Positions 1-39,859 are shown, numbered from the stretch's first letter. The stretch: DNA of 64,000 bases from Alphaproteobacteria bacterium (GCA_045631185.1 JAZQUH010000039.1:139740-203739); one strand, 5' to 3'. The notes: generated by a model from the letters alone, not told the origin. Translations and numbers: made by a program.

Positions 1-2
1 AC

Positions 3-839
3 TTGCCATGGTTGAAAAGTTTGAAGTTGGACGAAACGGTTTTTGAAAACTTGATTGATGCCGATACAACGCCCCGTTGCTTTCGTCATAAAAAAGGCCT
101 GCTGTTGGTGGTGCGTGGTGTGAATCCCCGAAAAGGTGAAGATGATGATATGGTGGCGGTGCGTATTTGGATGACCCAAAACCGATTGCTGACTTTATCA
201 CATCGACCGGTTACTTCTATCAGTAAGGTGTTGGAAAAACTGCGCCGAAAAAAAGGGCCTGAAACTTTGGGGGATTGCCTTTCAATGTTGTTGTCCAAAA
301 TGACAAAACAAATAGAAGAATCCTTTTTCGCCATCAATGAATCTTTGGATGATTTGGAAGAGCGAGTGATTCAGGGCAATGGTATTCGTCAGGATGAATC
401 TTTGCGTGAAAAATTGAGTAATATCCGTTATATGATTGTGGGGTTAAAGCGTTATATTTTACCACAAAGAAATGTGATGGGGTTGTTGGAAAAAACGGAT
501 TTTGCTTTTTTCTCTGAATCGAATTTGGCCCGTTTTCGTGAAAATACACGGGATTTGACGGCTGTTGTGGATGGGTTGGAATTTGCCAAAGACCATTCAA
601 AAGTGACCCAAGAAGAATTGGATTCGCAAACAAATATCAATATCAGCCGAACTATGTATTTGATGAGTTTGGTGATGCTGATTTTTACCCCGCTTACTTT
701 TGTGACAGGGCTATTGGGTGCTAATATCGGTGGTATTCCTTTTAATGACAGTCCTTATGGCTTTGTATTTATATGTGCAATATTGCTATGTATGGTTGCT
801 TTTCAGTTTTACCTGATAAAGCGCATTAAATGGTTCTAA
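3..839 (+). CDS. zntB: ZntB/CorA-family divalent cation transporter, 5'-truncated by window edge
   Basis: ORF is open to the window start. The C-terminal two-TM region ...RTMYLMSLVMLIFTPLTFVTGLLGANIGGIPF... closely resembles the E. coli ZntB G-x-N pore region (LFGVNLGGIPG). Confidence 0.8.
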   Translation: MPWLKSLKLDETVFENLIDADTTPRCFRHKKGLLLVVRGVNPRKGEDDDMVAVRIWMTQNRLLTLSHRPVTSISKVLEKLRRKKGPETLGDCLSMLLSKMTKQIEESFFAINESLDDLEERVIQGNGIRQDESLREKLSNIRYMIVGLKRYILPQRNVMGLLEKTDFAFFSESNLARFRENTRDLTAVVDGLEFAKDHSKVTQEELDSQTNINISRTMYLMSLVMLIFTPLTFVTGLLGANIGGIPFNDSPYGFVFICAILLCMVAFQFYLIKRIKWF

Positions 840-1493
840 TTACCAATTTTTGCATAAAGCTTGAGTTTTTGCATAGGATTCCGGTGTATCAATTTGTGCA
901 TGTTTTTTTGCAATTGTTTGATTGATATGATTTAGTAAAGGTTGTAATTCCGAGAGGATATAATTAAACTGTTCCTGAGTAAAACTAGAAATCTCTTGTT
1001 CGGATTTAATAAGTTTAGGTGTCATATTGGATACGATTTCTTGAATTTTTTGTTCTATATCCGGTTTGAAAAATAGCATAGCCTGTTGGGCAATCGCAAC
1101 ATGATGATTTTCATGTTCTCGAATAACTTCATATTCGCATGAACCTGGGTTGTATTTCTTATCGATATATACTTTTAAATTTCCTTTTTCGTATCCCATT
1201 TTAAAATTAAGGAAACTTAAACTGGCACAAATTTGATTTCCTTGTTTTTCAACTGTTGCTTGGGCATTCCCTGATATGGATAAATTTGAAACAGTTAATC
1301 CTAGCGTATTGGGGGAAACCGTTATCTTTGAGTTGCTTAAAAACTCTTTTCTGGACTTTGTTGTAATGTATTGAACATTTCCAGGATTTGTTGTGATTTG
1401 GATACGAGTGGAAGTTTTATCGCAAAACGCACTTGCATTTTGTGATAAAAACAGCGATAATATCGCACAGAGTATAATTTTTTTATTCATCAT
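840..1493 (-). CDS. secreted hypothetical protein with HExxH motif (possible DUF922-like metallopeptidase)
   Basis: Sec signal peptide MMNKKIILCAILSLFLSQNASA. Single HENHH (HExxH) motif near residue 128. No firm family assignment. Confidence 0.45.
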   Translation of the reverse strand: MMNKKIILCAILSLFLSQNASAFCDKTSTRIQITTNPGNVQYITTKSRKEFLSNSKITVSPNTLGLTVSNLSISGNAQATVEKQGNQICASLSFLNFKMGYEKGNLKVYIDKKYNPGSCEYEVIREHENHHVAIAQQAMLFFKPDIEQKIQEIVSNMTPKLIKSEQEISSFTQEQFNYILSELQPLLNHINQTIAKKHAQIDTPESYAKTQALCKNW

Positions 1494-1522
1494 GATTTGA
1501 TATTAGCACAAAGGAAAACAAA

Positions 1523-2320
1523 ATGCAAAGAATAATTTCATGGAATGTTGCATCAGTCAGATCAAGAATGCCAACATTGGAAAAATTTTTGAATTTATAT
1601 CAACCAGATATTGTATTTTTACAGGAAATAAAAGCTACGGAAGATAATTTTCCTTTTATGGATTTTAAACAGATGGGCTATGATGCTGTTATTTCGGGTC
1701 AAAAGGCCTATAATGGTGTTGCTTTTTTATCAAAACAACCTTTGGTGGATGTTGTTCGTGAATTGCCTGATGCTCCAAAATCAGATCCGATTCAGGCGCG
1801 TTTTATTCAGGCGCGCTTGCCTGATAATAAAATTGTTATTTGTGTTTATGCGCCTAATGGGGCCCCGCCGATGAAAAATCCGTCCGATACATCACGTTTA
1901 ATTTTTAAATTGAAATGGTTTGATGCTTTGACGAAGCATATTCAAAATTTATTGCAATCGGGTGAGCAAATTATTTTAGGTGGTGATTTTAATGTGATAG
2001 AACGTGATACGGATGTCTATAACGCAAAATCGTTTGAAGGCAGTGCCTTGATTGTGCCTGAGGTGCGTCAGGTTTTTGAAAAACTCAATCAAACAGGTTT
2101 AAAAAATATGATTCGAAATTTCAATCCAATGGAAAAAACATATTCGTTTTGGGATTTTCAAATGGGGGCATGGCCCAGAAATTTGGGGATATTATTGGAT
2201 TTTTTCTTTGTATCACCTGGTTTGGAATGTTTTGTTGAAAATGCATATATTTACCGAGATGTACGTGGTTGGGAAAAAACTTCTGACCATGCTCCAATAG
2301 CTTTGGAAATAAAAACGTAA
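1523..2320 (+). CDS. xthA: exodeoxyribonuclease III (AP endonuclease, EEP fold)
   Basis: N-terminal ISWNV...LQEIK, internal GGDFNV, C-terminal SDHAPI. Length 265 aa, typical for the family. Confidence 0.9.
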   Translation: MQRIISWNVASVRSRMPTLEKFLNLYQPDIVFLQEIKATEDNFPFMDFKQMGYDAVISGQKAYNGVAFLSKQPLVDVVRELPDAPKSDPIQARFIQARLPDNKIVICVYAPNGAPPMKNPSDTSRLIFKLKWFDALTKHIQNLLQSGEQIILGGDFNVIERDTDVYNAKSFEGSALIVPEVRQVFEKLNQTGLKNMIRNFNPMEKTYSFWDFQMGAWPRNLGILLDFFFVSPGLECFVENAYIYRDVRGWEKTSDHAPIALEIKT

Positions 2321-2399
2321 AAAAAAATTAAAAAAATATATTTTTTTCTTTCCTTTTTATTTTAATTGGGTTAATATATAGAAAAAGGGAGATAGAAAT

Positions 2400-2693
2400 A
2401 TGCGGGAACCAATTTTGAAAGCGGTTTGTGTGCCCCCCAGACTTTTTTGGGCGCCAGCTATTATAGCTGGAGCAAATTTGATTGTTCAGTTTTCTTTGAT
2501 GTTAATGTGGGTTGGTTTAACTGGTCGCTCTATTATGCCTTTTATGTTTTCTATACCTATAGTTCATGCAATGATTGCGGTTTGGGGCAAAAAAGAGCCG
2601 CATTTGTCTAGGATTTTGATTTCATGGGGACAATCAGGTGCAACAAGTACCAAAAATGTTTATCGTTGTCGAGGAACAAAGTTTGCTCCATAA
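2400..2693 (+). CDS. virB3: type IV secretion system protein VirB3
   Basis: 97-aa two-TM protein directly upstream of virB4. PILKAV..PPRLFWAP motif region is like VirB3. Confidence 0.7.
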   Translation: MREPILKAVCVPPRLFWAPAIIAGANLIVQFSLMLMWVGLTGRSIMPFMFSIPIVHAMIAVWGKKEPHLSRILISWGQSGATSTKNVYRCRGTKFAP

Positions 2694-2707
2694 AAAAAAG
2701 GAATAAA

Positions 2708-5143
2708 ATGAATATAGATGCCGGCGTTTTTGATTATATTATAACATCAGCTACAGCTTCTTCTACTTTGGTGGCTGCTGTGGGGGTATTATCGGCTATA
2801 TTTTTGTGTTTCGTTTTTATTACTAAATTCAGTGAGTTTGTTTTGCCTAAGCCAGTTGAAACACGATTAGCTAACTTTTTGCCTTTTGATTATTTGGATG
2901 AGGATGGTGCCACGATTCATTTGCATAATGGTGGCTTAGCTCGTGTTTTTGAAGTTAAAGGTGTTGATACAACATTAGTTTTGCCAGAAGATCGTGAAGT
3001 GTTAATGGAAACACGCAAGCGTTGGATTGATTCAATGGTTGAACTTCAGGTTGTTGCACGTGTTGTTACAGTTCGTGAACATGTTGATTTGAAAGAACCT
3101 GAAGCATATCAAGATAACCGTTTGTTAAAAGAAGTAGCAGCCTTATGGATGGAAAATTTACATCGTATCTTTAATAATAAACATTACATTATTTTATCTA
3201 TTAATGATCGTAAAGATGCAATGAAGGATTTGGATCAGGCAACAAGTACTTTAACTAGTATTATGGATTTGTATGAGCCACGCTTGTTAAGTGAAAAAAA
3301 TAATATAAATAATAACGATAAAAGTCCTTTTTGGTTGTTTGCTAAAATGTCCAGTCCGTTATCTCGTCCGAAACCGATGGTGCATGGTGAAAAAAAAGAT
3401 CGCTTAAATGATTTATTGACAGCGGACTATGTTCATTTTACCAAAGATGAAGGTATAGTGCGTTATTTTAATGGTAATCGAGAAAAACTATCCATTACAA
3501 TGGGAATTCGAAAACCTGGTGATTTTATGGATGAACAGATGGTTGCCGATTTTTTAAGTTTAGATATTGAATTGACCTTGTTGCATAATATCATGGGCAT
3601 TCCCAGTTGGAAAGTTATGCCCAAAGTGATGCAACAACAAAAAATGGCCTATTTTACGACCTTTTCGCAAAATGTTGTGGAACAGTTTGAAGAGGCTAAA
3701 CAGGCTTTGGATGCCAATGATGCCAATGCGCAAAGTTGGAATGAATATGCCCTAAGTATTATCATCTTTGGTGATAGTGAAGAAGAATTAAAATTTGGTC
3801 AAGAAGAGGTGGAACGCATTTGTCGTATGTATAATGTGACACCGGTTCGTGATGGTTGGGCGGCTCAAGCAGTGTTTTTCAGCCAGTTCCCCACCTTTGA
3901 TATTTATCCCAGAACTTATCAGTATTTATCTCGGGTAGTGGCTTGTGCAACGGTTGTAGATAAAGCTCCGACAGGTCGTACAAAATCTGATTGGGGACCC
4001 GTACCTATCAGTTGGTTCAGAACCATCACCGGCACACCGTATGCATTCCAATTCCATGTGTCCGAAGAACCTTATGCAGTGGCACACACCGCTTTAATCG
4101 GTCCGACAGGTCAAGGTAAAACCACCTTCTTCAGCTTTATGGCTGGTCAGGCAATGCGTATTCCTGATTTAAATACTTACTTTTTTGATCGTAATAACGG
4201 TGCTAAAGTTTTTGCAATTATGAATGGATCACCCTATGTGCGTTTTGATGGTGGTGAAGAATCTGTTTCTCTAAATCCGTTTGCTATTCCCGATACACCG
4301 GACAATCGTGCTTTTTTAAGAACATGGATTCGTGATATTACAGGGGGTAATGATGCCGTTTCGGAAAGTGAAATTGCTCGTGCGGTTACAACGGCTTTTG
4401 AATATTTACCACAAAGTGACAGATTGCTTAAAAATTTGTACAAATCCTGTTTTGCGCCGAACAGCTTTATGCGTCGGGAGCTTATGCGTTGGATTGATCC
4501 TGATCAATATGGGCGTATTTTTAATTCGCTGACGGATAACTTGGATTTGGATAGCCGTTATATGTGTTTTGATTTTACAACAATATTCCAAGATCCGACA
4601 TTGGCACCAGCCGTGATTAGCTATGTGATGCATCGTATTCAAACTCTTTCTACGATCAAAGGGACGCCTAGCATGATTATGATTGACGAAACAGCGCCGA
4701 TGTTGGAACATCCTATGTTTAAGGACAGTTTTATCGTGGGATTGCGGGAAGGTCGTAAAAAACGCCAAGCCTATTTGTGTGCTTTCCAGCAACCCAAGTT
4801 TTTGGATGAAAACGGTTTGGGTGATGTGATTCGTGGTCAATGTCAGACGGTTGTATTTTTCCGTAATCCTCAGGCGAATGAGTCGGATTATGCCACATGG
4901 AATTTGACCCCTCGGGAAATGAACTTTATTTTGGGTAAAGAATTTACAGATCGTAAATATGCAATTTTAGTATCTCGACCTGCTATTCATGAATCGGTTA
5001 TCTTGGATGTTGATTTATCAGGATTAGGTCCTTATTTAAAGATTTATTCATCGGGTAATAAAAATGTGTTATTGGCCGAAAAATTACAACGTGAACTTTC
5101 CGATACCGATCAAATAGTACAAGAGTATTTGAAACGCGCTTAA
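2708..5143 (+). CDS. virB4: type IV secretion system ATPase VirB4
   Basis: Walker A GPTGQGKTT and Walker B-like MIMIDET. About 810 aa. Follows virB3. Start taken at ATG 2708 (MNIDAG...) after aaaaggaat rather than the ORF-track start 2624, which overlaps virB3. Confidence 0.9.
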   Translation: MNIDAGVFDYIITSATASSTLVAAVGVLSAIFLCFVFITKFSEFVLPKPVETRLANFLPFDYLDEDGATIHLHNGGLARVFEVKGVDTTLVLPEDREVLMETRKRWIDSMVELQVVARVVTVREHVDLKEPEAYQDNRLLKEVAALWMENLHRIFNNKHYIILSINDRKDAMKDLDQATSTLTSIMDLYEPRLLSEKNNINNNDKSPFWLFAKMSSPLSRPKPMVHGEKKDRLNDLLTADYVHFTKDEGIVRYFNGNREKLSITMGIRKPGDFMDEQMVADFLSLDIELTLLHNIMGIPSWKVMPKVMQQQKMAYFTTFSQNVVEQFEEAKQALDANDANAQSWNEYALSIIIFGDSEEELKFGQEEVERICRMYNVTPVRDGWAAQAVFFSQFPTFDIYPRTYQYLSRVVACATVVDKAPTGRTKSDWGPVPISWFRTITGTPYAFQFHVSEEPYAVAHTALIGPTGQGKTTFFSFMAGQAMRIPDLNTYFFDRNNGAKVFAIMNGSPYVRFDGGEESVSLNPFAIPDTPDNRAFLRTWIRDITGGNDAVSESEIARAVTTAFEYLPQSDRLLKNLYKSCFAPNSFMRRELMRWIDPDQYGRIFNSLTDNLDLDSRYMCFDFTTIFQDPTLAPAVISYVMHRIQTLSTIKGTPSMIMIDETAPMLEHPMFKDSFIVGLREGRKKRQAYLCAFQQPKFLDENGLGDVIRGQCQTVVFFRNPQANESDYATWNLTPREMNFILGKEFTDRKYAILVSRPAIHESVILDVDLSGLGPYLKIYSSGNKNVLLAEKLQRELSDTDQIVQEYLKRA

Positions 5144-5176
5144 AAAAAGGGGGGGGATCTGAAACATTTATCACTA

Positions 5177-6985
5177 TTGACAACATTATTGATTTCATCA
5201 TCTATGGTTTATGCGGGATGGATAGCCACTGGTATAGATTATAAAGGTGATTGTTTGGAAATGATGTGCGATTGTGTGGAAGACAGTGAAACAAGAGATG
5301 GATATTGTTGTCCCAATGGTACCGCTTTTGCCAATACGGGAAATCCTCATCCCACTTATACACCCTGTAAATGTCCTGAAAATTTGTCATGGGATAGTAC
5401 TTTATCCCAATGTGTGGAGTGTTTGACAGATACGAATTGTGATGAAGGTGTTTCTTGTAATATTTTAACAAAGGTATGTTGTCCGGCCGAAACACCCAAA
5501 TGGGATAGCGTTCAACAAAAATGTGTGGAATGTTTATCAGATTATGGTTCGGGTGAGCAAAATGCCTGTTCTGAAGAAAAGCCGATTTGTGATACATCAG
5601 ATTATATTTGTAAATCTTGTGCTGAATTGGATCCGTTGAAACCGTATTGGGATGAAAATACAAAAATGTGCGTTCAATGTTTGGATAATTACGGTTCAGA
5701 TGAAGGTTTGGGTTGTGTATCCGAAGAAAAACCCCTTTGTGACACAACGGATTATACCTGTAAAACTTGTGCTGAGGCGGATCCGACAAAACCGTATTGG
5801 AACGCAAAGTTGGGCCAGTGTGTGGAATGTGTGCAAGATGATCAATGTCCAACGCCCAGTGATTCCAAAAATGATGCCGTATGTTTTAACGGAACATGTC
5901 AAGAATGCCCCAAACGAATTGAAATTGTCGCAAAAAAAGTTGGCACTTCAGGAGGTTCCCATGCGGGCAGTTCTGTCTTTAAAGCAGGTTTGTACGGTCA
6001 TGAATATTGTTCTTATGATTTACATTTAAAAGGATATGCATTAAGTCAGAGTCTTTCTTTAACTTTTACCGGCGATGTTGAAACAATTCGTGAAACAACA
6101 TACGGATGCTGGAAATGTTGTAACAGTCGGACTTTTGATGGGGGTGTTTACCACAGATTACATCCCGGCACTTATTTTAAAACGTTTTGGCAATATTCGG
6201 ATTATGGTAAACATTGTAATTATTTAACCTTTACAATGGATGAAGCATATTTGGAAAGAGTTCCAAATTGTACGGATTGTACATATAAATCCGGTGTTGA
6301 TCCATCGTTCACCTATGAACAATGTGCCAATCAATTGGATCGTTATTTTAAAGATGGCAAGTGTTATGCCTGTCCGGCGGGTACAAGATCAAATGCCGAT
6401 CATACGGAATGTTTATGTGAAAAGGGTAATTATTTGTCTGGTGAAAAGTGCTATTCATGCACGGATGGAACCTATAAAAAAACAACCGAAGCGGCCTGTT
6501 ATGCCAAATGTCCGAAGGATACCCGTATGTGGAGTAAGTATGGTGGTTATAATTACTGTTTTGATTGTAATTATTCTGGCGGTATTTACGCATGGTTCAC
6601 CAAAGAAGAATGCAACCACTGTCCGAACAGATACTTTAAAGACGGTAAGTGTTCATTGTGTCCGGCTAATTCTAAGCCGAATGCGGATAACAGCGATTGT
6701 GTCTGTAACGAGGGTTATTATATGTCTAATGGTGCTTGCTATTCCTGTACGGATAAAACTTACAGGGCAGCAACCGAAGCAGCCTGTTATAATACCTGTC
6801 CGGATAATACCCGTCTGTGGCGCAAAACAAACGGTTATTGCTTTGATTGTAATTATGCCTCAGTTATAACTTCTGCCACTAAAGAAGAATGCAATCATTG
6901 TCCAAACCGATACTTTAAAGACGGCCAATGTTCGTTGTGTCCAAAGGGAAAAAAGCCTAATTCAGACAGAACAGATTGCGAGTAG
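5177..6985 (+). CDS. cysteine-rich repeat protein (CVEC-type 49-aa repeats plus ephrin-receptor/furin/VSP-like 93-96-aa repeats), probably secreted
   Basis: Long ORF with a very high Cys content and CxxC spacing, with internal tandem repeats. The true start may be upstream at in-frame CTG 5159, which would give the signal peptide (M)KHLSLLTTLLISSSMVYA. Confidence 0.7.
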   Translation: MTTLLISSSMVYAGWIATGIDYKGDCLEMMCDCVEDSETRDGYCCPNGTAFANTGNPHPTYTPCKCPENLSWDSTLSQCVECLTDTNCDEGVSCNILTKVCCPAETPKWDSVQQKCVECLSDYGSGEQNACSEEKPICDTSDYICKSCAELDPLKPYWDENTKMCVQCLDNYGSDEGLGCVSEEKPLCDTTDYTCKTCAEADPTKPYWNAKLGQCVECVQDDQCPTPSDSKNDAVCFNGTCQECPKRIEIVAKKVGTSGGSHAGSSVFKAGLYGHEYCSYDLHLKGYALSQSLSLTFTGDVETIRETTYGCWKCCNSRTFDGGVYHRLHPGTYFKTFWQYSDYGKHCNYLTFTMDEAYLERVPNCTDCTYKSGVDPSFTYEQCANQLDRYFKDGKCYACPAGTRSNADHTECLCEKGNYLSGEKCYSCTDGTYKKTTEAACYAKCPKDTRMWSKYGGYNYCFDCNYSGGIYAWFTKEECNHCPNRYFKDGKCSLCPANSKPNADNSDCVCNEGYYMSNGACYSCTDKTYRAATEAACYNTCPDNTRLWRKTNGYCFDCNYASVITSATKEECNHCPNRYFKDGQCSLCPKGKKPNSDRTDCE

Positions 6986-7002
6986 TACTTAAAAGCATCC
7001 CC

Positions 7003-7134
7003 GTTTTATCGGGTCTGGGGCCGTATTTGAAAGTTTATTCATCGGGTAATAAAAATGTGCTGTTGGCCGAAAAATTACAACGCGAACTTTCCGATACTGA
7101 TCAGATTCTTCAAGAGTATTTGAAACGAGCTTGA
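7003..7134 (+). pseudogene. relic 3' end of a virB4 paralogue (last ~41 codons plus stop)
   Basis: Translates to SGLGPYLKVYSSGNKNVLLAEKLQRELSDTDQILQEYLKRA*. The intact VirB4 C-terminus is SGLGPYLKIYSSGNKNVLLAEKLQRELSDTDQIVQEYLKRA*. The DNA differs mostly at synonymous positions. Confidence 0.85.
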
Positions 7135-7239
7135 GATAGGTTGTTTGAATATTTTTTAAGTAATGGATAAAGTATCTTAAGTAAATTTTTATTTTTATGG
7201 AAGTTCAAAATAAAAAAAAGTGGCCAAAAAGACGGGGGG

Positions 7240-7328
7240 ATCACTTCGTTCGTTCTTTCAGGACCGCCTTCGGTGTCCGCTTACTTTGTGCGCGACCGAC
7301 CCCCAGAATCTGGACTTCTCATCCCCAT
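7240..7328 (-). repeat. GC-rich tRNA-adjacent repeat unit (copy downstream of tRNA-Ser)
   Basis: The segment ...aggcggtcctgaaagaacgaacgaag... matches aggcggacgaaagaacgccgaaaa in the unit at 21222-21365. The junction tttttttatgggGATGAGAA matches the unit at 21417. Confidence 0.5.
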
Positions 7329-7350
7329 AAAAAAAACACCCCGCAGGGTG
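7329..7350 (-). terminator. intrinsic terminator of tRNA-Ser
   Basis: The minus strand reads cacccTGCGgggtg followed by a U-run. Confidence 0.7.
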
Positions 7351-7357
7351 TAAAAAG

Positions 7358-7448
7358 TGGCGGAAAGATGGGGATTCGAACCCCAGATAGAGACAAGCCC
7401 TATAACAGATTTCGAGTCTGCCGCATTCGACCACTCTGCCATCTTTCC
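7358..7448 (-). tRNA. tRNA-Ser (anticodon CGA), CCA encoded
   Basis: Reverse complement is GGAAAGATGGCAGAGTGGTCGAATGCGGCAGACTCGAAATCTGT...GGGGTTCGAATCCCCATCTTTCCGCCA. It has a long variable arm and the anticodon loop CT-CGA-AA. Confidence 0.9.
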
Positions 7449-7501
7449 GTATTCACTACTCTCAATCTGTTATGTGTCTTGCTGGCGCAATCCAAACAGA
7501 T
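7428..7501. repeat. direct repeat copy 1 (5' part of tRNA-Ser plus its upstream region)
   Basis: 74 nt, repeated at 7552-7625. Identical over about 53 nt (gtattcactactctcaatctgttatgtgtcttgctggcgcaatccaaacagat). Confidence 0.85.
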
Positions 7502-7551
7502 TAGAACGCTTTGCGCTCTTTCACTTCGTTCAATGACGAGTTGCCGCTTAT

Positions 7552-7625
7552 CGACCACTGTCCATCTTTGAAGTATTCACTACTCTCAATCTGTTATGTG
7601 TCTTGCTGGCGCAATCCAAACAGAT
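7552..7625. repeat. direct repeat copy 2 with truncated pseudo-tRNA-Ser 5' fragment
   Basis: cgaccactgtccatctttgaag compared with the real cgaccactctgccatctttccg. The rest of the tRNA body is missing. Confidence 0.8.
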
Positions 7626-7703
7626 ATATAGTTTTTGCATTATACAAAAAACCGCTTTAAATTGCAAGCGTTTTTAAAAATAACTTTTTTTGTAAAATCC
7701 CCC

Positions 7704-7732
7704 TTGCAATTTTATAAAAAAAAAATTATAGT
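7704..7732 (+). promoter_or_regulatory. sigma70-type promoter of cspA, followed by a ~105-nt structured 5' UTR
   Basis: TTGCAA-17 nt-TATAGT. The UTR has long-range complementarity (gcatcagc ... gctgatg), as in cold-shock leaders. Confidence 0.55.
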
Positions 7733-7844
7733 GATTTTGTCTTCGGATGCATCAGCTTATCAACAAAGACAACTTTGTCATTAAGAATTGCTTTCGAATT
7801 TTTGCTGATGACAAAGCGTTTTTTATTTATAAAGGAGTTTTCGG

Positions 7845-10018: not shown

Positions 10019-13000
10019 ATGAAAAAAATCATCATAGGATTTTTATTATTGCTTGCAATTATTGCGGGTGTTTTTGTTTTTTCTGTTGTGCGTTCCTTTG
10101 ATGTTGAGTTATATAAAGAAAGGGTTGTAACACGTTTAGAGGCTTTAACAGGTCGAAAAATTCAACTCCAAGACGCTTCTCTTTCTTGGGGGAGTACGCC
10201 TATTTTTATTATGAATAATTTAGTTATTTCTAATCAAGATGGCGGTTCGACGCCGAACATGATCTCAGTTAAACAAATTCAAGCTGAGATGGATTGGAAG
10301 GGGATTTTTAGTGGTGATTTAGAAATTAAAAAAGTTGTTTTTCAAGAACCTAGTGTTTTGGTGGAGCGTAGTCATACTTTTCAAACAAATTTTTCCTTTC
10401 CGTTGTTGTTTAACCCCAGAAAAATTACGGATCAAGATTTTTACTCTTCTGATGTTAATGACATCAAAATTGATCTTTTTGAAATAGTAGGTGGAAAAAT
10501 AACATATCATAACTCTTTAACTTCCAAAACGGTTGTTTTGGAAGGAGTAAATGGTATGGGGAAGGTTGATTCCTTGTTGGGACCTTTTTCCTTTAAGGGC
10601 GATTTAGAAATAGAAAAAATAAAATTTTCAGTCAATATTGAAACAGAAAAGATTGTTCTTTCTAATCCATTGAGAATAAAAACCTCTCTTAAAGAACAAA
10701 GTAAATTGTTAGAAATGGATTTGAATGCTGAATTATCTGTAGATTCTGTAGAAGATTGGTTGACTGTTGATGGTACATTTAATCTTTTTAAGCCTGATGA
10801 ATTTTTCAAGCGTTTTATGAAAATAGATTGGCAAGATTCTACCTCATTGATTGGAAGCTTAAAGTTTGTTGTCAATTCGAAAGACTTAAATTTAAAAGAA
10901 ATAGTTTTAACTCAAGAAAAAGATAATCCTGTCTCATACATTTATAATCTAAAAAAAGATGAAAATGGGAAAGAGAAGATGATTTTAACTATAGATGAGT
11001 TAGATTGTACTTTTTGTAAAAATTTTGGAGATTTAAAAACAAAATTGATACAATTTCAAACAGAAAGAGATTTTGATATAACGATAAAAAAATTAAGATA
11101 CAATCAGCAAGAATTAACGGATTTTATTTTTCAAGGAAGTATTTCTCCTAATGCTTTTGATGGGACTTTGAATGTTAATTTGCCATTTGGTGGAAAATTA
11201 GATTCACATATAAAAAAGAATGATAATATCTGGACTATCGATATGAATTCCGAAATGAAGGAATTTCATTCTTTAGTGAAGTGGTTTGGGGGCGATCAGG
11301 TTATTGAGAAAATTCCGAAAAGTTTAACGGATTTAAGGTTGATGATGAAAATAAAAATTTCGGATGGTGGAGTGGATATCGAAGCTTTAAATATTAATGA
11401 TATTCAAGTTTCAGGGAGACTTGAAAAATCGAAAGATTCTTTTAAATCGGACTTGAAGGTTCATAATTTGAATTTTGATCAATTTTATCCTCAAAGTCAG
11501 GAATTAACTCAAACTGGTATGTTGGATTTGATTAAGACGAGTATCGCTAAAATTTCTAATATTACTGAAAATATATCTATAAAATCGTCATTTTTAAATG
11601 CAGTATTTTTTGGACAAACATATCAGGAATTAGGGATTGTTGCGCAAAAACAAGGAATGGATTGGAGTGTTGAAAAAATATCTATCCAAAAAGAAGAAAA
11701 TAAAAACTTAACTATTTCAGGTAAAGTAAAGTTAGAACAAGATGGCAAGTATTTATTTGAAAATCTTCGTCTTGATTTGGCCAGTCCTTGGGCGCTTTCT
11801 TTATTAAAATTAATACAGTCTGATTTTTTTGCTTCGGAAATTGAAAATATAACAGTATCAGAAGGTTATTTGATATATTCAGGGGATACGAAACAAGGTC
11901 AATTTGAGCTAGATGTAAAATTTGATGGAACTGATTTAAAAGCAAGAGGGTTTGTTAATTTAGATAACAAAGGTTTTGAAAATATTCAATTGAATATATC
12001 TAACGAAAACTTTTTAAATATTGCAAAAATGGTTCTTTCTGATTATGAACTATCTGATGAATGGGAGATTCCGTTTGTTTTGGATGGTAAAATTTCATGG
12101 AATAATAATGAAAAGATCTGGACAGATATGACTGTTTCTCTTGATGAAAATAATTTTAAAACATCAGGGATTTGGAAAGATGAAAGATTTCAGATAAATG
12201 TTTTTTCTGATAAGTTTGATTTCGAACTGTTTTTGCCAGATTTCCAAACTATTTTTTCTTTTTCACCAACTCCTTTTAATATTTTTGAAAATATACCAAA
12301 TGGTGATTTAAAATTTGAAGTTGATAACTTTAGCTATGGCGATATAGAAGGTGGTAATTTAAAATTAGAAGCAATATTGCAAGATAAATTAATGTCGATT
12401 TCTGATTTTAGTTGTTTGATTGGTAGGGAACATCCTGGTCGAGTTTCTGCAAAAGGAACGGTTTCTTTTGAAAAAAATATAGGTATTGATTTGAATCTTG
12501 ATTGGGATAACCTTTTCTCAGAACAAAATAGTTATTTTACTTATGGGAATGGAAAGTATCATTTTGGAAATGGTCTTTTTTCAGGGAAGTTAAATCTTAA
12601 AACATCTGGTGATTCATGGTTTGCTTTGTTTGATTCTTCCAGTGGTGAAGGTGAAATAAATTGGAAAAATGGAGACTTCTATGGATTAGATGTTTCTGTT
12701 TGGTTGTCGGCAGTTCAAGCAGCCTCTGTCGCTCAAGAGTTAGGAAAAGGTTTTTCTTCACGTTTGCAATATGCTTTATCTGGTGGAAAAACAGCATTTC
12801 CGGATCTGCGTGGTAATTTTACTTTAGAAAAAGGTACTGTGAGATTTATGGATGTTCAGGGTAAAAATGATTTGATATCTATTTCAGGTATGACAATGGA
12901 TCTCTTTCCCAATAAAGTAACGAATAATATAAAAATACCTATTGCATTAACTGATTTATCTAAACTACCTCCCATTATTTTTGAATTTAAAAATGGTACT

Positions 13001-13675
13001 TATAATGTAAATTCAACTTTGTTTGAACAGGCTTTTACTGAAGAATTAAAGTTGAAGAATCAGAAAAATATAGAGGCTAAGGAATTGAAAAATCTTCAGG
13101 CAAGAGAATTAAAAAATCAACAAATGCGTCAAGAAGCACAAAATATTATAAAACAAATGGAAACAACGTTAAAACAACTTCAGGAAAGGGTTGCTTTACG
13201 AGATGAAACTATTTCAAGTGAACGTTTGGATGAATTAAATCTTACGGCCCGTGAAATTCGTGAATTAGCAGTAAAAACAGATTTAATGCCATCAGAATAT
13301 GCCTCATTGTTGGAAAAAACAAAATTATGGGCAATTCAGGTTAATGATTTGAACAATGCTTATGCACGTCAGGATTTGCTGTCTCAAAAAGCTAAGGTAA
13401 ATCAACTTTCACCATTGGTAAATAATTATTTGGCAGCTATGGAACAATTCTGGCAACAGCATCCTCAATCTGTTATTTTATATGAAATCGTTATGAATGC
13501 ACGTCAGGTGGCAGAAACTATTAAACTAGACGAAAGCCAATTGTCGGTTGCGCAAGATGCCTCTACTGTTCAAAATTTGATTTTACGAATTCAGAATAAT
13601 TTTGCAAAAATTGAAAAAGCACATCAATATGCTCAAAAAATACATCTTTCCTTAATGAATGGTGGGAGCGTTTAA
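10019..13675 (+). CDS. AsmA-family outer-membrane biogenesis protein with C-terminal coiled-coil extension
   Basis: N-terminal TM anchor, a long beta-rich body and an AsmA_2-like DLRGNFTLEKGTVRF segment. The last ~230 aa are K/E/Q-rich and heptad-like. Confidence 0.6.
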   Translation: MKKIIIGFLLLLAIIAGVFVFSVVRSFDVELYKERVVTRLEALTGRKIQLQDASLSWGSTPIFIMNNLVISNQDGGSTPNMISVKQIQAEMDWKGIFSGDLEIKKVVFQEPSVLVERSHTFQTNFSFPLLFNPRKITDQDFYSSDVNDIKIDLFEIVGGKITYHNSLTSKTVVLEGVNGMGKVDSLLGPFSFKGDLEIEKIKFSVNIETEKIVLSNPLRIKTSLKEQSKLLEMDLNAELSVDSVEDWLTVDGTFNLFKPDEFFKRFMKIDWQDSTSLIGSLKFVVNSKDLNLKEIVLTQEKDNPVSYIYNLKKDENGKEKMILTIDELDCTFCKNFGDLKTKLIQFQTERDFDITIKKLRYNQQELTDFIFQGSISPNAFDGTLNVNLPFGGKLDSHIKKNDNIWTIDMNSEMKEFHSLVKWFGGDQVIEKIPKSLTDLRLMMKIKISDGGVDIEALNINDIQVSGRLEKSKDSFKSDLKVHNLNFDQFYPQSQELTQTGMLDLIKTSIAKISNITENISIKSSFLNAVFFGQTYQELGIVAQKQGMDWSVEKISIQKEENKNLTISGKVKLEQDGKYLFENLRLDLASPWALSLLKLIQSDFFASEIENITVSEGYLIYSGDTKQGQFELDVKFDGTDLKARGFVNLDNKGFENIQLNISNENFLNIAKMVLSDYELSDEWEIPFVLDGKISWNNNEKIWTDMTVSLDENNFKTSGIWKDERFQINVFSDKFDFELFLPDFQTIFSFSPTPFNIFENIPNGDLKFEVDNFSYGDIEGGNLKLEAILQDKLMSISDFSCLIGREHPGRVSAKGTVSFEKNIGIDLNLDWDNLFSEQNSYFTYGNGKYHFGNGLFSGKLNLKTSGDSWFALFDSSSGEGEINWKNGDFYGLDVSVWLSAVQAASVAQELGKGFSSRLQYALSGGKTAFPDLRGNFTLEKGTVRFMDVQGKNDLISISGMTMDLFPNKVTNNIKIPIALTDLSKLPPIIFEFKNGTYNVNSTLFEQAFTEELKLKNQKNIEAKELKNLQARELKNQQMRQEAQNIIKQMETTLKQLQERVALRDETISSERLDELNLTAREIRELAVKTDLMPSEYASLLEKTKLWAIQVNDLNNAYARQDLLSQKAKVNQLSPLVNNYLAAMEQFWQQHPQSVILYEIVMNARQVAETIKLDESQLSVAQDASTVQNLILRIQNNFAKIEKAHQYAQKIHLSLMNGGSV

Positions 13676-28800: not shown

Positions 28801-29874
28801 ATGTTTGATGAATATAGTGAGTTTTATTTTGCACAAGAAGATCATGGCAATTTTTTACATATTTATGTTCCTGGTAAATTACCGATGGCCAGAGGCGTAA
28901 AGCAAATAAAATGGACTGGAAATTTTGAAAAGCCTTCAAAAGAAAATTATAAAAAAGAGGCAATAATTTTACGTAAAAATCTTAAAAAAAACGGATTTTT
29001 AAAAGATTTACCGCAACGTCAATTGCCCGGATATAATTCATATTATCCGTATGATGTTTCCCCAATGGGAATTTGGGAAATTACACCCGACTTAAGGGAT
29101 TTGATATATGTGCGAAATGATGTTGCCTATAAAATGAGACATACTTTGTGGTTTCCGTTGTTGAGAAAATTACAGGAAAAGATTGGTCAATATGATTATA
29201 TCCAATTGACTTTGCCCAAATTACCAAAATTGATGTTGGAAGAACATTTAAACGAATGGTATAAAAACAATACTCTTGAAGCTGGTTTTATCAAACGTTT
29301 GGAAAAATTATCACAAAAAACCATGATTGATATTATGGAAGATGATAACAGCATAAGAATCAGACCGGTCAATCATCCTTTTGTGAATCAACCCGCATGC
29401 CGTATAGAATATTCACAAAATCAGGAAAAATCGCGGGAAAATTTACCTTATCAAGATATGTTAAAACTAAAACAACAGGTTGCGGAACGTGATGTTTATT
29501 TGTTAAAAGGTTTGACCGATTCAGAACGCAAAAAAATGGCGCATGCCTCTTTATCTGATATGGAACAAGATTCAACACACCAATTGCATTGGATTCATTG
29601 GCCCTCTTTAAATGGGGGTATGAACAAAGATAATGCCATTATTGTTACATCAAATATAAAACAGATGTATCAATTTGCGGTACAAACACCTTTGGAATCA
29701 TTTTTAAAATCCCATGGTTCGGATTTGGCAAAAAAAGGTAAACCTGTTTTTGTTGAGTTGCCGATTCCATATAATGGTTATCGTTCAGCGCCGATAAAGA
29801 AAATAAAAACAAAACATCAAAATCGTTCAGAATTAAAGCAAAAATTGCAAAAAGCGCTTGAAACGGACAGATAA
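28801..29874 (+). CDS. hypothetical protein (357 aa), probably co-transcribed with the AAA+ gene
   Basis: 15-nt gap after the AAA+ stop. No recognisable motif. Confidence 0.55.
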   Translation: MFDEYSEFYFAQEDHGNFLHIYVPGKLPMARGVKQIKWTGNFEKPSKENYKKEAIILRKNLKKNGFLKDLPQRQLPGYNSYYPYDVSPMGIWEITPDLRDLIYVRNDVAYKMRHTLWFPLLRKLQEKIGQYDYIQLTLPKLPKLMLEEHLNEWYKNNTLEAGFIKRLEKLSQKTMIDIMEDDNSIRIRPVNHPFVNQPACRIEYSQNQEKSRENLPYQDMLKLKQQVAERDVYLLKGLTDSERKKMAHASLSDMEQDSTHQLHWIHWPSLNGGMNKDNAIIVTSNIKQMYQFAVQTPLESFLKSHGSDLAKKGKPVFVELPIPYNGYRSAPIKKIKTKHQNRSELKQKLQKALETDR

Positions 29875-29878
29875 AAAA

Positions 29879-29910
29879 ATCCCCGACCAATTCGGTCGGG
29901 GATGGCTTTT
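29879..29910 (+). terminator. hairpin H1 (tccccgacc family), terminator
   Basis: atccccgacc-aattc-ggtcggggat followed by ggcttttt. Confidence 0.75.
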
Positions 29911-33872: not shown

Positions 33873-33916
33873 AATAACAGATATAAAACAGTTGTTAGTT
33901 TTGTTTTGGATATATG

Positions 33917-33946
33917 AAAATCCCCGACCGTTTGGGCCGGGGATAG
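33917..33946 (-). terminator. hairpin H2 (tccccgacc family)
   Basis: Minus strand ccccggcc-caaac-ggtcgggg followed by auuuu. The single mismatch is a G.U pair only in the minus-strand RNA. Confidence 0.65.
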
Positions 33947-33952
33947 TTTATA

Positions 33953-33992: not shown

Positions 33993-34019
33993 AGTATAAC
34001 ATTTTTTATTTTATGTCAA
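33993..34019 (-). promoter_or_regulatory. promoter of mini-ORF copy 1
   Basis: Minus strand TTGACA-15 nt (ending TGt)-TATACT, an extended -10. Confidence 0.45.
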
Positions 34020-34020
34020 T

Positions 34021-34050
34021 AAAAAAATCCCCGACCGTTTTAGCCGGGGA
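34021..34050 (-). terminator. hairpin H3 (tccccgacc family), terminator of the bor-like gene
   Basis: Minus strand ccccggc-taaaac-ggtcgggg followed by aU7. Confidence 0.75.
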
Positions 34051-34062
34051 TAGTTTTTCAGT

Positions 34063-34353: not shown

Positions 34354-34580
34354 GTTACTTCCTTTTTTTAAAAAATCGCCATGATGAGTGGCGGTTGGAA
34401 GTTAAACACTATCAATCAAATAGCGCCACATATTTGGCAAAGCCTTATTCTGTGGCCATCCAACCGCAAAAACGGTTGAATGTTTTACGTCAATTGACGA
34501 GATTGAGAGGTGTTTAATCCTCACAGTTGGAATCACCAAACTGCGATATTAGAATATATCTTTTTTATAAAAAATGCAAT

Positions 34581-34610
34581 AAAAAAATCCCCGACCGTTT
34601 TGGCCGGGGA
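34581..34610 (-). terminator. hairpin H4 (tccccgacc family), terminator of acd plus mini-ORF copy 2
   Basis: Minus strand ccccggcc-aaaac-ggtcgggg followed by aU7. Confidence 0.75.
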
Positions 34611-34620
34611 TAGTTTTTTT

Positions 34621-38798: not shown

Positions 38799-38942
38799 AT
38801 GAAATTGCATGAAAAAAAATCCAATAAATTAAAATGGGTGATAGGCTTGATTTTATTGGGCGTTATCGTTCTTTTTGCCGTGTGTGATTTTATGCCAAAA
38901 CAACAACAAATTGAAAAGCAAATTGTTCACAGCGTTTTATAA
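38799..38942 (+). CDS. small single-pass membrane protein, hypothetical
   Basis: SD aggagg 6 nt before ATG 38799. The 47-aa product has one TM (WVIGLILLGVIVLFAV). Its stop overlaps the xerD start. Confidence 0.45.
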   Translation: MKLHEKKSNKLKWVIGLILLGVIVLFAVCDFMPKQQQIEKQIVHSVL

Positions 38943-39859
38943 TGACCCCTCAAATTGATGCTTTTTTGGAAATGATGCAGGCACAACGGGGAGCTTCCGT
39001 CAATACTTTATCGGCCTATCGGCGTGATATGTATTTGTTGGATGAATATCTGTTGTCGCATCATTCGGGTTTGTTAAAAGCCACCGAAGATGATTTAAAA
39101 TCTTTTTTAAAGTTTTTAATGAATACGGGGGATTCGGTGCGCACTCGTGCCAGACGATTGTCCTGTATTCATGAATTTTATCGTTTTGCCTATTCGGAAG
39201 GGTGGATAAAGGTCAATCCGTCTGATTATTTACAAGGTCCGAAATTGCCCCAAACGTTACCCAAATACCTGACGGAAGATGAAATTTTTTTATTGATTCA
39301 GCAAGCCCGTGAAAACAATAAGCGCCTGTATGTATTGTTGGAGCTTTTATATGCCACCGGCATGCGTGTCAGCGAATTGGTTGGCTTGCCGTTGGGGGCT
39401 TTTGTGCCTGATGAACGGCATTTATTGATTTTGGGTAAAGGCGGGCGAGAACGAATCGTTCCGCTAAATGATTATGCAATTGATGCTTTGATTCAATGGA
39501 AACAAATACGTGAAAATGATTTGCCCTATAACCGCAAAAGCAAATGGTTGTTTCCTTCCAAAAGTTGCTTGGGGCATTTAACACGGGATACGTTTTTTAA
39601 AGAATTAAAAAAATTGGCTTTGCTTGTCGGATTGAATCCGGATAAGGTTTCGCCACATGTCTTTCGCCATTCTTTTGCCTCACATTTGGTGGCCCATGAT
39701 GCGGATTTGCGTTCCGTTCAACAAATGTTGGGCCACTCGGATATATCCACAACACAAATTTATACGCACATTTTACCCGACAGATTAAAAAAGATTGTTG
39801 AAAAATCTCATCCTTTGTCGTATAATGGAGCGAGGAAAAAAAATGAAGATAGCGGATAA
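38942..39859 (+). CDS. xerD: site-specific tyrosine recombinase XerD
   Basis: LSAYRRD, GPKLPQTLPKYL, ATGMRVSELVGL, HVFRHSFASHL, LGHSDISTTQIYTH. Confidence 0.9.
   Translation: MTPQIDAFLEMMQAQRGASVNTLSAYRRDMYLLDEYLLSHHSGLLKATEDDLKSFLKFLMNTGDSVRTRARRLSCIHEFYRFAYSEGWIKVNPSDYLQGPKLPQTLPKYLTEDEIFLLIQQARENNKRLYVLLELLYATGMRVSELVGLPLGAFVPDERHLLILGKGGRERIVPLNDYAIDALIQWKQIRENDLPYNRKSKWLFPSKSCLGHLTRDTFFKELKKLALLVGLNPDKVSPHVFRHSFASHLVAHDADLRSVQQMLGHSDISTTQIYTHILPDRLKKIVEKSHPLSYNGARKKNEDSG

Follow-up and report, generated by a model that had tools for sequence, protein, structure and literature searches.

A second, diverged copy of the 3' end of virB4, which encodes the ATPase of a type IV secretion system (T4SS), lies behind a gene for a cysteine-rich (Cys-rich) protein in a stretch of 64,000 nucleotides (nt) from an alphaproteobacterium (GCA_045631185.1, JAZQUH010000039.1:139740-203739; "the window", whose coordinates are used throughout). 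This second copy, the relic, is interpreted here as the dead scar of a single microhomology-mediated illegitimate recombination event, with one-sided import of DNA in the manner of homology-facilitated illegitimate recombination (HFIR) as the favored version, a reading held with about as much belief as doubt. It calls for no new mechanism: the scar is of a known kind. It offers a dated footprint, resolved to the base, of how DNA was exchanged or rearranged at the edge of T4SS genes between lineages of an uncultured gut clade that differ at the species level; to our knowledge, natural cases that keep both the microhomology and the displaced gene end are seldom documented.

The direct repeat comprises 128 nt at 5014-5141 and 7005-7132, with 86% identity and a spacing of 1991 nt (blastn within the window, E = 5e-38); blastn finds no further virB4-like sequence in these 64 kb. 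The resident tail is translated as DLSGLGPYLKIYSS...DQIVQEYLKRA* and the relic as VLSGLGPYLKVYSS...DQILQEYLKRA*: 40 of the 42 residues are identical, and the differences are I/V and V/L. (A technical note: GTT, the first codon of the relic frame, comes half from a terminator loop that is described below, and not from virB4.) The 42 in-frame codons differ by 16 synonymous and 2 non-synonymous changes (proportions of synonymous and non-synonymous differences, pS and pN, of 0.56 and 0.02), a synonymous excess that would arise without constraint with P = 4.9e-9, and the two frames end in unlike stop codons, TAA in the resident gene and TGA in the relic. Between the repeats lie 1.86 kb in which the Cys-rich open reading frame (ORF; 5159/5177-6985) is the only substantial one; the others are contained within it, read from the opposite strand or in a different frame. 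A first-pass annotation of this DNA had already remarked on the recurrence of the virB4 tail after the Cys-rich ORF (the repeat begins 4 nt before the coordinates given there), on the near-identity of the two peptides with only those two replacements, on the many synonymous third-position differences and on the Cys-rich gene standing alone in the intervening segment, and in each of these respects it was right. It had also argued that this is not a recent target-site duplication, which holds as well: 14 differences are common to the relics of two strains, and almost all of them are synonymous. Target-site or tandem duplication is ruled out, the copies having diverged under coding constraint.

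Where, precisely, does the relic begin? In three related metagenome contigs (L070, L071 and L072; related loci and contigs are designated by L-numbers) the Cys-rich gene likewise follows virB4 (87-90% nt identity) and ends at a terminator hairpin that also serves a convergent DUF378 gene; these contigs have no relic. The hairpin is a full bidirectional terminator in L070 (-16.9 kcal/mol, z -3.8) and L072 (-19.1 kcal/mol, z -6.1). The window keeps only the ascending arm and the loop (AAAAGCATCCCCG TTTTATCGG), after which virB4 sequence, GTCTGGGGCCG..., replaces the descending arm; what is left folds no better than shuffled sequences, in the window and also in a second strain (L085). Homology to the L072/L070 cassette stops at 7012 and the relic starts at 7005. 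The 8 overlapping nt, TTTATCGG, belong to the terminator loop and are also contained in virB4 codons about 797-800 (GAT TTA TCG GG in L001). With L072 (terminator) and L001 (virB4) as proxies for the parents, a random joint would have at least 8 nt of microhomology with P = 5e-4. The length of the microhomology, 8 nt, is within the 3-10 bp taken as the mark of illegitimate joints, and the partner is as diverged (pS 0.56, pN 0.02) as is expected of such a scar. Because the relic begins exactly at the 8-nt microhomology inside a broken terminator hairpin, the joint is best read as an illegitimate, microhomology-mediated one, and not as a crossover in the conserved virB4 end, which is what the first-pass annotation had proposed.

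(A family of 42-nt hairpins, AAAAATCCCCGACCG…CGGGGAT…TTT, is present in four copies elsewhere in the window, at 29869-29910, 33910-33951, 34017-34058 and 34577-34618; these elements resemble the terminator that is truncated at the relic joint.)

Whose tail is the relic? A scan of species-representative genomes provided 68 loci for comparison, 67 of them virB3-virB4 loci and one (L068, 27% identity) with virB4 only. Relic and resident differ to the degree that is found between species for virB4: over the last 215 virB4 codons, the window differs from L001, L052, L070 and L002 by pS 0.53-0.62 and pN 0.02-0.03. The relic is about equidistant (83-86% nt identity) from the tails of the window, L001, L002 and L003, and its protein is 95-98% identical, which is the orthologue level. 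Because its divergence equals that of virB4 between species, the relic is neither a divergent paralogue nor an in-place duplication, but the tail of a second, orthologous virB4 allele, whose lineage is about as far removed as a sister species would be. Of the two origins first offered, a different allele or a paralogue, the allele under coding constraint (16:2) stands and the paralogue falls (95-98% amino acid identity); recombination between two T4SS loci, also suggested, gains no support, as neither the window nor any of the 68 related loci contains a further virB4 of this type. None of these loci carries a second copy of the tail, and the relic is missing from all other lineages sampled. 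Searching more widely brought nothing closer: a degenerate 43-mer run against metagenome contigs matched twice, both times no more closely and without the cassette; the relic peptide, used as a protein query, retrieved nothing but three short C-terminal VirB4 ORFs, which belong to more distant lineages and show 69-71% identity with the peptide; and a search with the C-terminal third of VirB4 yielded only fragments of at most 550 amino acids, with no close full-length relatives.

Two other sets of virB4-like pieces came to light. In L024 (3744-4811), L026 (9344-10453), L028 (9455-10576) and L030 (9422-10516), a piece homologous only to the VirB4 N-terminal domain, accompanied by a second virB3-like ORF, lies just upstream of virB3-virB4 and is 26-34% identical to the main copy; it is either a truncated paralogue or an old relic. 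At that identity, and with only the N-terminal domain represented, these pieces cannot be the source of a tail that is 95-98% identical. In two short metagenome contigs, L095 (P0110) and L096 (P0030), unrelated N-terminal domains (PG-binding-like and sigma-70 region 2, respectively) stand in frame with VirB4 C-terminal fragments, and the G+C content jumps at the junctions (22-27% to about 40%, and 52-55% to about 40%). These contigs are probably assembly chimeras rather than further relics.

The same arrangement is found in L085 (ENA ERZ28436107 NODE_160), an independent metagenome assembly from a different sample. It is 97.1% identical to window positions 1-7445 and keeps the order virB4, Cys-rich gene, relic, tRNA-Ser; exact-protein look-ups with VirB3 and Xth return only two contigs, both with this layout, the second having been reported as a "similar place". 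Over virB4 as a whole the two strains differ by pS 0.035 and 2 amino acid changes, and in the resident tail at 0 of 132 positions. The relic differs at 6 of 132: three of the changes are non-synonymous (including R to C in L085 and V to L in the window), and the stop codon is TGA in one strain and TAA in the other. Since the relic has taken on these changes, the R to C replacement and the stop switch among them, as against none in the resident tail, it is now without coding constraint and drifts as non-coding DNA. Its 14 specific states common to both strains place the joining event before the strains split.

The course of events might have been as follows. A donor fragment consisting of the 3' part of virB4, the Cys-rich gene and its terminator, arranged as in L070/L072, would have paired with the resident virB4 on its left side. 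On the right, the end would have been sealed at the 8-nt microhomology, joining the loop of the terminator to the second virB4 allele at codon about 797. The last 42 codons of the resident gene would thus have been pushed downstream to become the relic, the two alleles belonging to lineages that had diverged about as far as sister species. Which of the two tails is native, where the left crossover fell and by what route the DNA was taken up are points that we infer; a dprA gene in the genome of a relative (L087) is the only hint of uptake by natural transformation.

HFIR with joints of 3-10 bp has been documented experimentally in Acinetobacter, S. pneumoniae and P. stutzeri (PMC6382021, citing de Vries & Wackernagel 2002, PMC122324). 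The likeness is that new DNA is placed beside a homologous anchor and its far end is sealed at a microhomology, here of 8 bp as compared with the 3-10 bp given there (PMC6382021), and that the new DNA stands directly after a gene that both partners have in common. The difference is that HFIR is a laboratory phenomenon of competent bacteria, and that here it would have to be read from a scar in an uncultured gut alphaproteobacterium, in which the left crossover has not been detected.

Several considerations weigh against such an import. 1) A sliding-window comparison of corA-virB4 with L001, L052, L002, L003 and L070 reveals no mosaic breakpoint. 2) The joint lies 128 bp inside the donor-homologous region, which is awkward for HFIR; in classic HFIR the illegitimate joint is usually past the anchor. 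3) A DNA difference of ~15% between donor and recipient would make RecA-dependent pairing inefficient. 4) The import presupposes that this uncultured clade is naturally competent. 5) The relic-type allele is found in no intact virB4 among the 68 genome loci, the best match being 85.6%. (A Campbell-type integration of a 1991-bp circle was also considered and rejected: the 128-bp homology, 86% identical, would have had to recombine within its initial 8 nt.)

Could the scar instead have been left by a deletion? An ancestor with its own virB4 and Cys-rich gene might have acquired, next to tRNA-Ser, a second virB4 in the same orientation from a related species, and a microhomology-mediated loss running from the terminator loop to codon about 797 of that second copy would then have left its last 42 codons behind. 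Microhomology-mediated deletion is the commonest illegitimate event in bacteria, and the deletion requires no awkward geometry. Foreign DNA could have landed at tRNA-Ser, a hotspot with partial tRNA pseudo-copies and with neighbors that differ by lineage. The corA-virB4 block is, moreover, more diverged from JAZKXR01 (pS 0.53-0.61 for the five genes to the left of the joint) than is the block to its right (0.08-0.35, leaving out asmA at 0.63 and 44.6% amino acid identity) or the recJ block (0.22-0.50). The contrast hints that the two sides of the joint have had separate pasts, but rates that vary from gene to gene could also produce it. On the other hand, a second virB4 of this type is what neither the window nor the 68 relatives contain (the additional virB3/virB4-like pieces of L024/26/28/30 are too far removed, as noted above), and the deletion requires the additive gain of a chromosomal gene from a sister species, of which there is no direct trace. 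Because no sampled relative has such a second virB4, import is slightly favored; deletion, though possible, is judged rather unlikely.

A broader version of the story would make the virB4 stop a preferred docking point, at which Cys-rich secreted or pilin-like genes are repeatedly swapped so as to ride on the virB3-virB4 transcript, and of which the relic would be the first footprint. In its favor, the corA-hypothetical gene-xth-virB3-virB4 synteny with the four nearest species (L001, L052, L002, L003) stops exactly at the virB4 stop (5143 in the window), the genes beyond being different in each of the four, and different Cys-rich genes stand directly after virB4 in L012, L038, L063, L054 and the window/L070 lineage. 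Among the 62 loci that include downstream sequence, a Cys-rich ORF starts within 30 nt of virB4 in four (L012, L038, L063 and L054), and L004, L009 and L024 have Cys-rich ORFs within 3 kb of it; several of these ORFs have a pilin-like N-terminus (GRSM[VIL]EM...). Against it, the relic is found in this lineage only, and Cys-rich genes abound in these genomes (3 in the window, 24 in 1.17 Mb of loci). Also, in the genome of L052 (JAZKXR01) the orthologue of the window's cassette gene (L069) follows recJ. There the similarity runs from the ribosome-binding site to the stop codon, and no recJ or virB4 repeat flanks the gene. The docking point is an unlikely proposition. The position of the Cys-rich gene proved to be polymorphic when the locus was compared across relatives, as the first-pass annotation had recommended: after virB4 in L070, L071, L072 and L085, not 3' of virB4 in L001, L002, L003 and L052, and after recJ in L069. 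Its suggestion to look for other Cys-rich genes next to virB4-tail fragments led nowhere: none turned up in the 68 loci or around the cassettes of L069, L070, L063 and L038. The physical link that it drew between the Cys-rich family and the T4SS survives as adjacency in a few lineages, and fails in that the orthologue follows recJ and the other two Cys-rich genes of the window lie among housekeeping genes. Going by gene order, the association may be called suggestive at most, and the relic does not establish a functional tie.

Those two other Cys-rich genes, on the minus strand at 46480-49173 and 49187-51973, are ORFs of 897 and 928 amino acids with about 10-11% Cys and a type IV pilin-like N-terminus (…GRS[LM][IM]E[VI]IAV[LM]AI[VM]G…, Glu at +5), and match nothing in Pfam or NCBIfam. 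They lie between rarA (an MgsA-type AAA+ ATPase) and a 157-amino acid ORF without a family match, with folD and other housekeeping genes nearby. Homologues sharing this N-terminus immediately follow virB4 in L012, L038 and L063, and are close to it in L004, L009, L020 and L024.

Integrative elements can displace 3'-end fragments of their target genes (tRNA, tmRNA and protein genes) at their borders, and here, too, an insert separates an intact gene from a dead and diverged copy of that gene's 3' end. One might take the Cys-rich gene for the remnant of an element whose attachment site resembles the virB4 3' end, and the two virB4 tails for attL and attR: direct repeats surround a single-gene insert at a gene's 3' end, and identical stretches of 26 and 20 nt in both copies could have served as a core. 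The resemblance ends there. An ORF scan and Pfam find no integrase or recombinase in or beside the insert (the nearest integrase-family ORF, of XerC/D-type architecture, is far away at 38942-39859); the gene occurs without a tail copy or flanking repeat in L069 (after recJ), L070, L071 and L072, and cassette ends elsewhere have no conserved att core; and the right edge of the insert lies inside the terminator hairpin, at the microhomology. With no recombinase, and with the Cys-rich genes of L069, L063 and L038 not bracketed, an att-type mechanism is unsupported; site-specific integration is largely refuted and very improbable.

It is likewise very improbable that the relic has been kept because it is useful, as a small ORF (TTG at 6976, ending at 7134; 52 codons) or as an element of the 3' untranslated region. 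The frame is open in both strains, but no ribosome-binding site is evident for it, the other lineages sampled all lack it, and it evolves faster than the resident tail (6 changes to 0), half of its changes being non-synonymous and its stop codon switched.

Least probable of all is a chimeric contig assembled from two co-occurring strains: the relatives are only metagenome contigs or metagenome-assembled genomes (MAGs), which suggests a metagenome assembly as the origin of the window too, contigs of the species are interrupted close by at tRNA-Ser repeats, and L095 and L096 do look chimeric, but the assembly error that the first-pass annotation had held in reserve is contradicted by L085, which has the same layout in another sample with a relic differing at 6 positions, and the 8 nt common to both sides of the joint are far below an assembler's k-mer, which makes such a misjoin implausible.

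Table 1. Features of the virB4/tRNA-Ser region of the window
Feature	Position	Strand	Remarks
corA	3-839	+	left end of window
Hypothetical gene	840-1493	-	
xth	1523-2320	+	
virB3-like gene	2400..2693	+	first of the virB3-virB4 pair; named from position and conservation
virB4 (T4SS ATPase)	2624..5143	+	likely true start ATG 2708, giving 811 amino acids as in relatives
Resident, functional virB4 tail	5014..5143	+	includes stop TAA
Gap between virB4 and Cys-rich gene	5144..5158	+	15 nt; A-run, then G8 tract (Shine-Dalgarno-like); no terminator
Cys-rich secreted-repeat gene	5159..6985	+	about 11% Cys; CTG at conserved start; next TTG 5177, ATG 5204
C-terminal Cys-rich modules	6292..6942	+	3 copies of 279-288 nt; hypervariable between strains
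Truncated terminator of Cys-rich gene	6992..7012	+	ascending arm and loop only
8-nt microhomology at illegitimate joint	7005..7012	+	terminator loop and virB4 codons about 797-800
Relic of a second virB4 allele	7013..7134	+	last ~40 codons and stop TGA; now non-coding
AT-rich spacer that came with relic	7135..7214	.	homologue in L085 only
Conserved segment	7215..7357	-	partial pseudo-copy of tRNA-Ser 3' part, ~65-nt insert, and tRNA terminator (7336-7351)
tRNA-Ser(CGA)	7358..7448	-	3' end toward relic; variable-neighborhood hotspot

The Cys-rich gene (Table 1) is in frame with virB4, only the TAA separating the two. Its protein has a faint TNFR/ELAPOR-like match in Pfam and no meaningful match in the PDB, and exact-protein look-ups hold no record of it or of VirB4. 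The protein combines Cys-rich repeats with a central non-repeat domain and with C-terminal modules of 93-96 amino acids, which number two to four among homologues; in homologues a Sec-type signal peptide (MKHLSLLT..VYA/GW) is encoded as well. Against these homologues the gene has been under purifying selection (ratio of non-synonymous to synonymous rates, dN/dS, 0.14-0.21). The divergence between the window and L085 is concentrated in the C-terminal modules (6300-6990), at 26-70 mismatches per 200 nt as compared with 0-10 elsewhere in coding sequence from 1 to 6300, and this pattern suggests intragenic recombination or recombination with a paralogue, as in variable surface proteins. (An exchange of the entire cassette between the two strains does not fit and was rejected, as only 6300-6990 shows the excess divergence and the initial 1.1 kb of the gene are nearly identical.)

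How the gene is expressed in this species is uncertain, the start codon being CTG behind a run of eight or nine G's: G8 in the window, G9 in L085 (12745-12763) and GGGG in L072; CTG is the start in both the window and L085, and ATG in the homologues of L072, L070 and L069. The combination could signify low or variable expression, or an incipient pseudogene. Since virB4 and the Cys-rich gene are separated by 15 nt without a terminator, their co-transcription is likely; virB3, virB4 and the Cys-rich gene probably form one transcription unit, which has lost its terminator and reads on through the relic. If the relic is what it is taken to be, it would be transcribed in this way without having a function of its own. 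The arrangement recalls Wolbachia, in which wspB, a surface-protein gene, is co-transcribed with virB8-virD4: in both cases a gene of secreted or surface type stands directly 3' of a vir gene with no terminator between them, co-transcription being a prediction here. The Cys-rich gene differs in following recJ in another genome and in having a CTG start in this species. Annotators should be wary, as the relic ORF and the Cys-rich gene with its CTG start could both be mis-called.

To the right of the relic lies tRNA-Ser(CGA), and beyond it csp, rdgB, ndk and other genes. The side of the tRNA gene that faces the relic is variable: it may be occupied by a tRNA synthetase, by a gene for a hypothetical protein of 504 amino acids or by another Cys-rich gene (L077). 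Look-ups with Ndk and Csp show other lineages to carry unrelated DNA to the left of the tRNA, and none of the look-ups with VirB3, Xth, Ndk and Csp revealed a strain in which the site is "empty". The tRNA-Ser repeats are where most metagenome contigs of this species are interrupted. The 3' side of virB4 and the neighboring tRNA-Ser are, then, fluid points in these genomes. In the conserved segment at 7215-7357 (…TCTGGGGTTCG / ATCCCC…GCCAC), an insert of ~65 nt splits the copy of the tRNA 3' part at the position of the T-loop; the segment is tandemly duplicated in L077 (676-960) and absent in L075, and RNAalifold predicts a stable fold with little covariation. Rfam finds only the tRNA in 6950-7750, the segment itself being without a match; it may be the remnant of an old att site. 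On the far side, a 124-bp tandem duplication (7427-7501 and 7551-7625) comprises the first 22 nt of tRNA-Ser and its upstream region; the unit is single-copy in L078, a 98%-identical contig, and is present in at least three copies in L077.

Further to the right, an AsmA-family gene (10019-13675) shows 44.6% protein identity to its positional orthologue in JAZKXR01, as compared with 93-100% for its neighbors. In less similar relatives the DNA match is lost after window positions 10413-10605 and is recovered near 12607, with a weak short match at 11974-12168 in three contigs. The middle part of this gene is either hypervariable or replaced.

The resident virB4 passes a family-profile test for VirB4/CagE/TrbE ATPases. 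It matches Pfam CagE_TrbE_VirB (PF03135) above the cut-off (E = 6e-13) and TIGR00929 VirB4_CagE over residues 199-836 (E = 5e-104; 349 bits, short of the curated cut-off of 643). The virB3-like gene has no match in Pfam; by tblastn of the related loci, such an ORF adjoins the 5' side of virB4 wherever upstream DNA is included, except in L068. Nearly all of the 68 loci belong to MAGs that carry the label uncultured Alphaproteobacteria and derive from the rumen or from rabbit and human gut; VirB4 is 88-92% identical in the nearest relatives (90-92% in L001, L002 and L052). The host is a gut-associated alphaproteobacterium of low G+C content (37.5%), known only from MAGs, in which the virB3-virB4 pair stands apart from other vir genes. 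This is reminiscent of the rvh T4SS of Rickettsiales, whose vir genes are scattered and duplicated and include a second virB4. The relic differs in being of orthologue level (95-98% protein identity) and not the remains of a divergent paralogue, and no second full virB4 has been found beside it.

The window begins at corA; in the sister strain L085 a podovirus-like prophage region (positions 1-6200 of the contig), with genes for capsid, head-tail connector, nozzle and an S24 repressor among others, lies ~1.3 kb upstream of corA.

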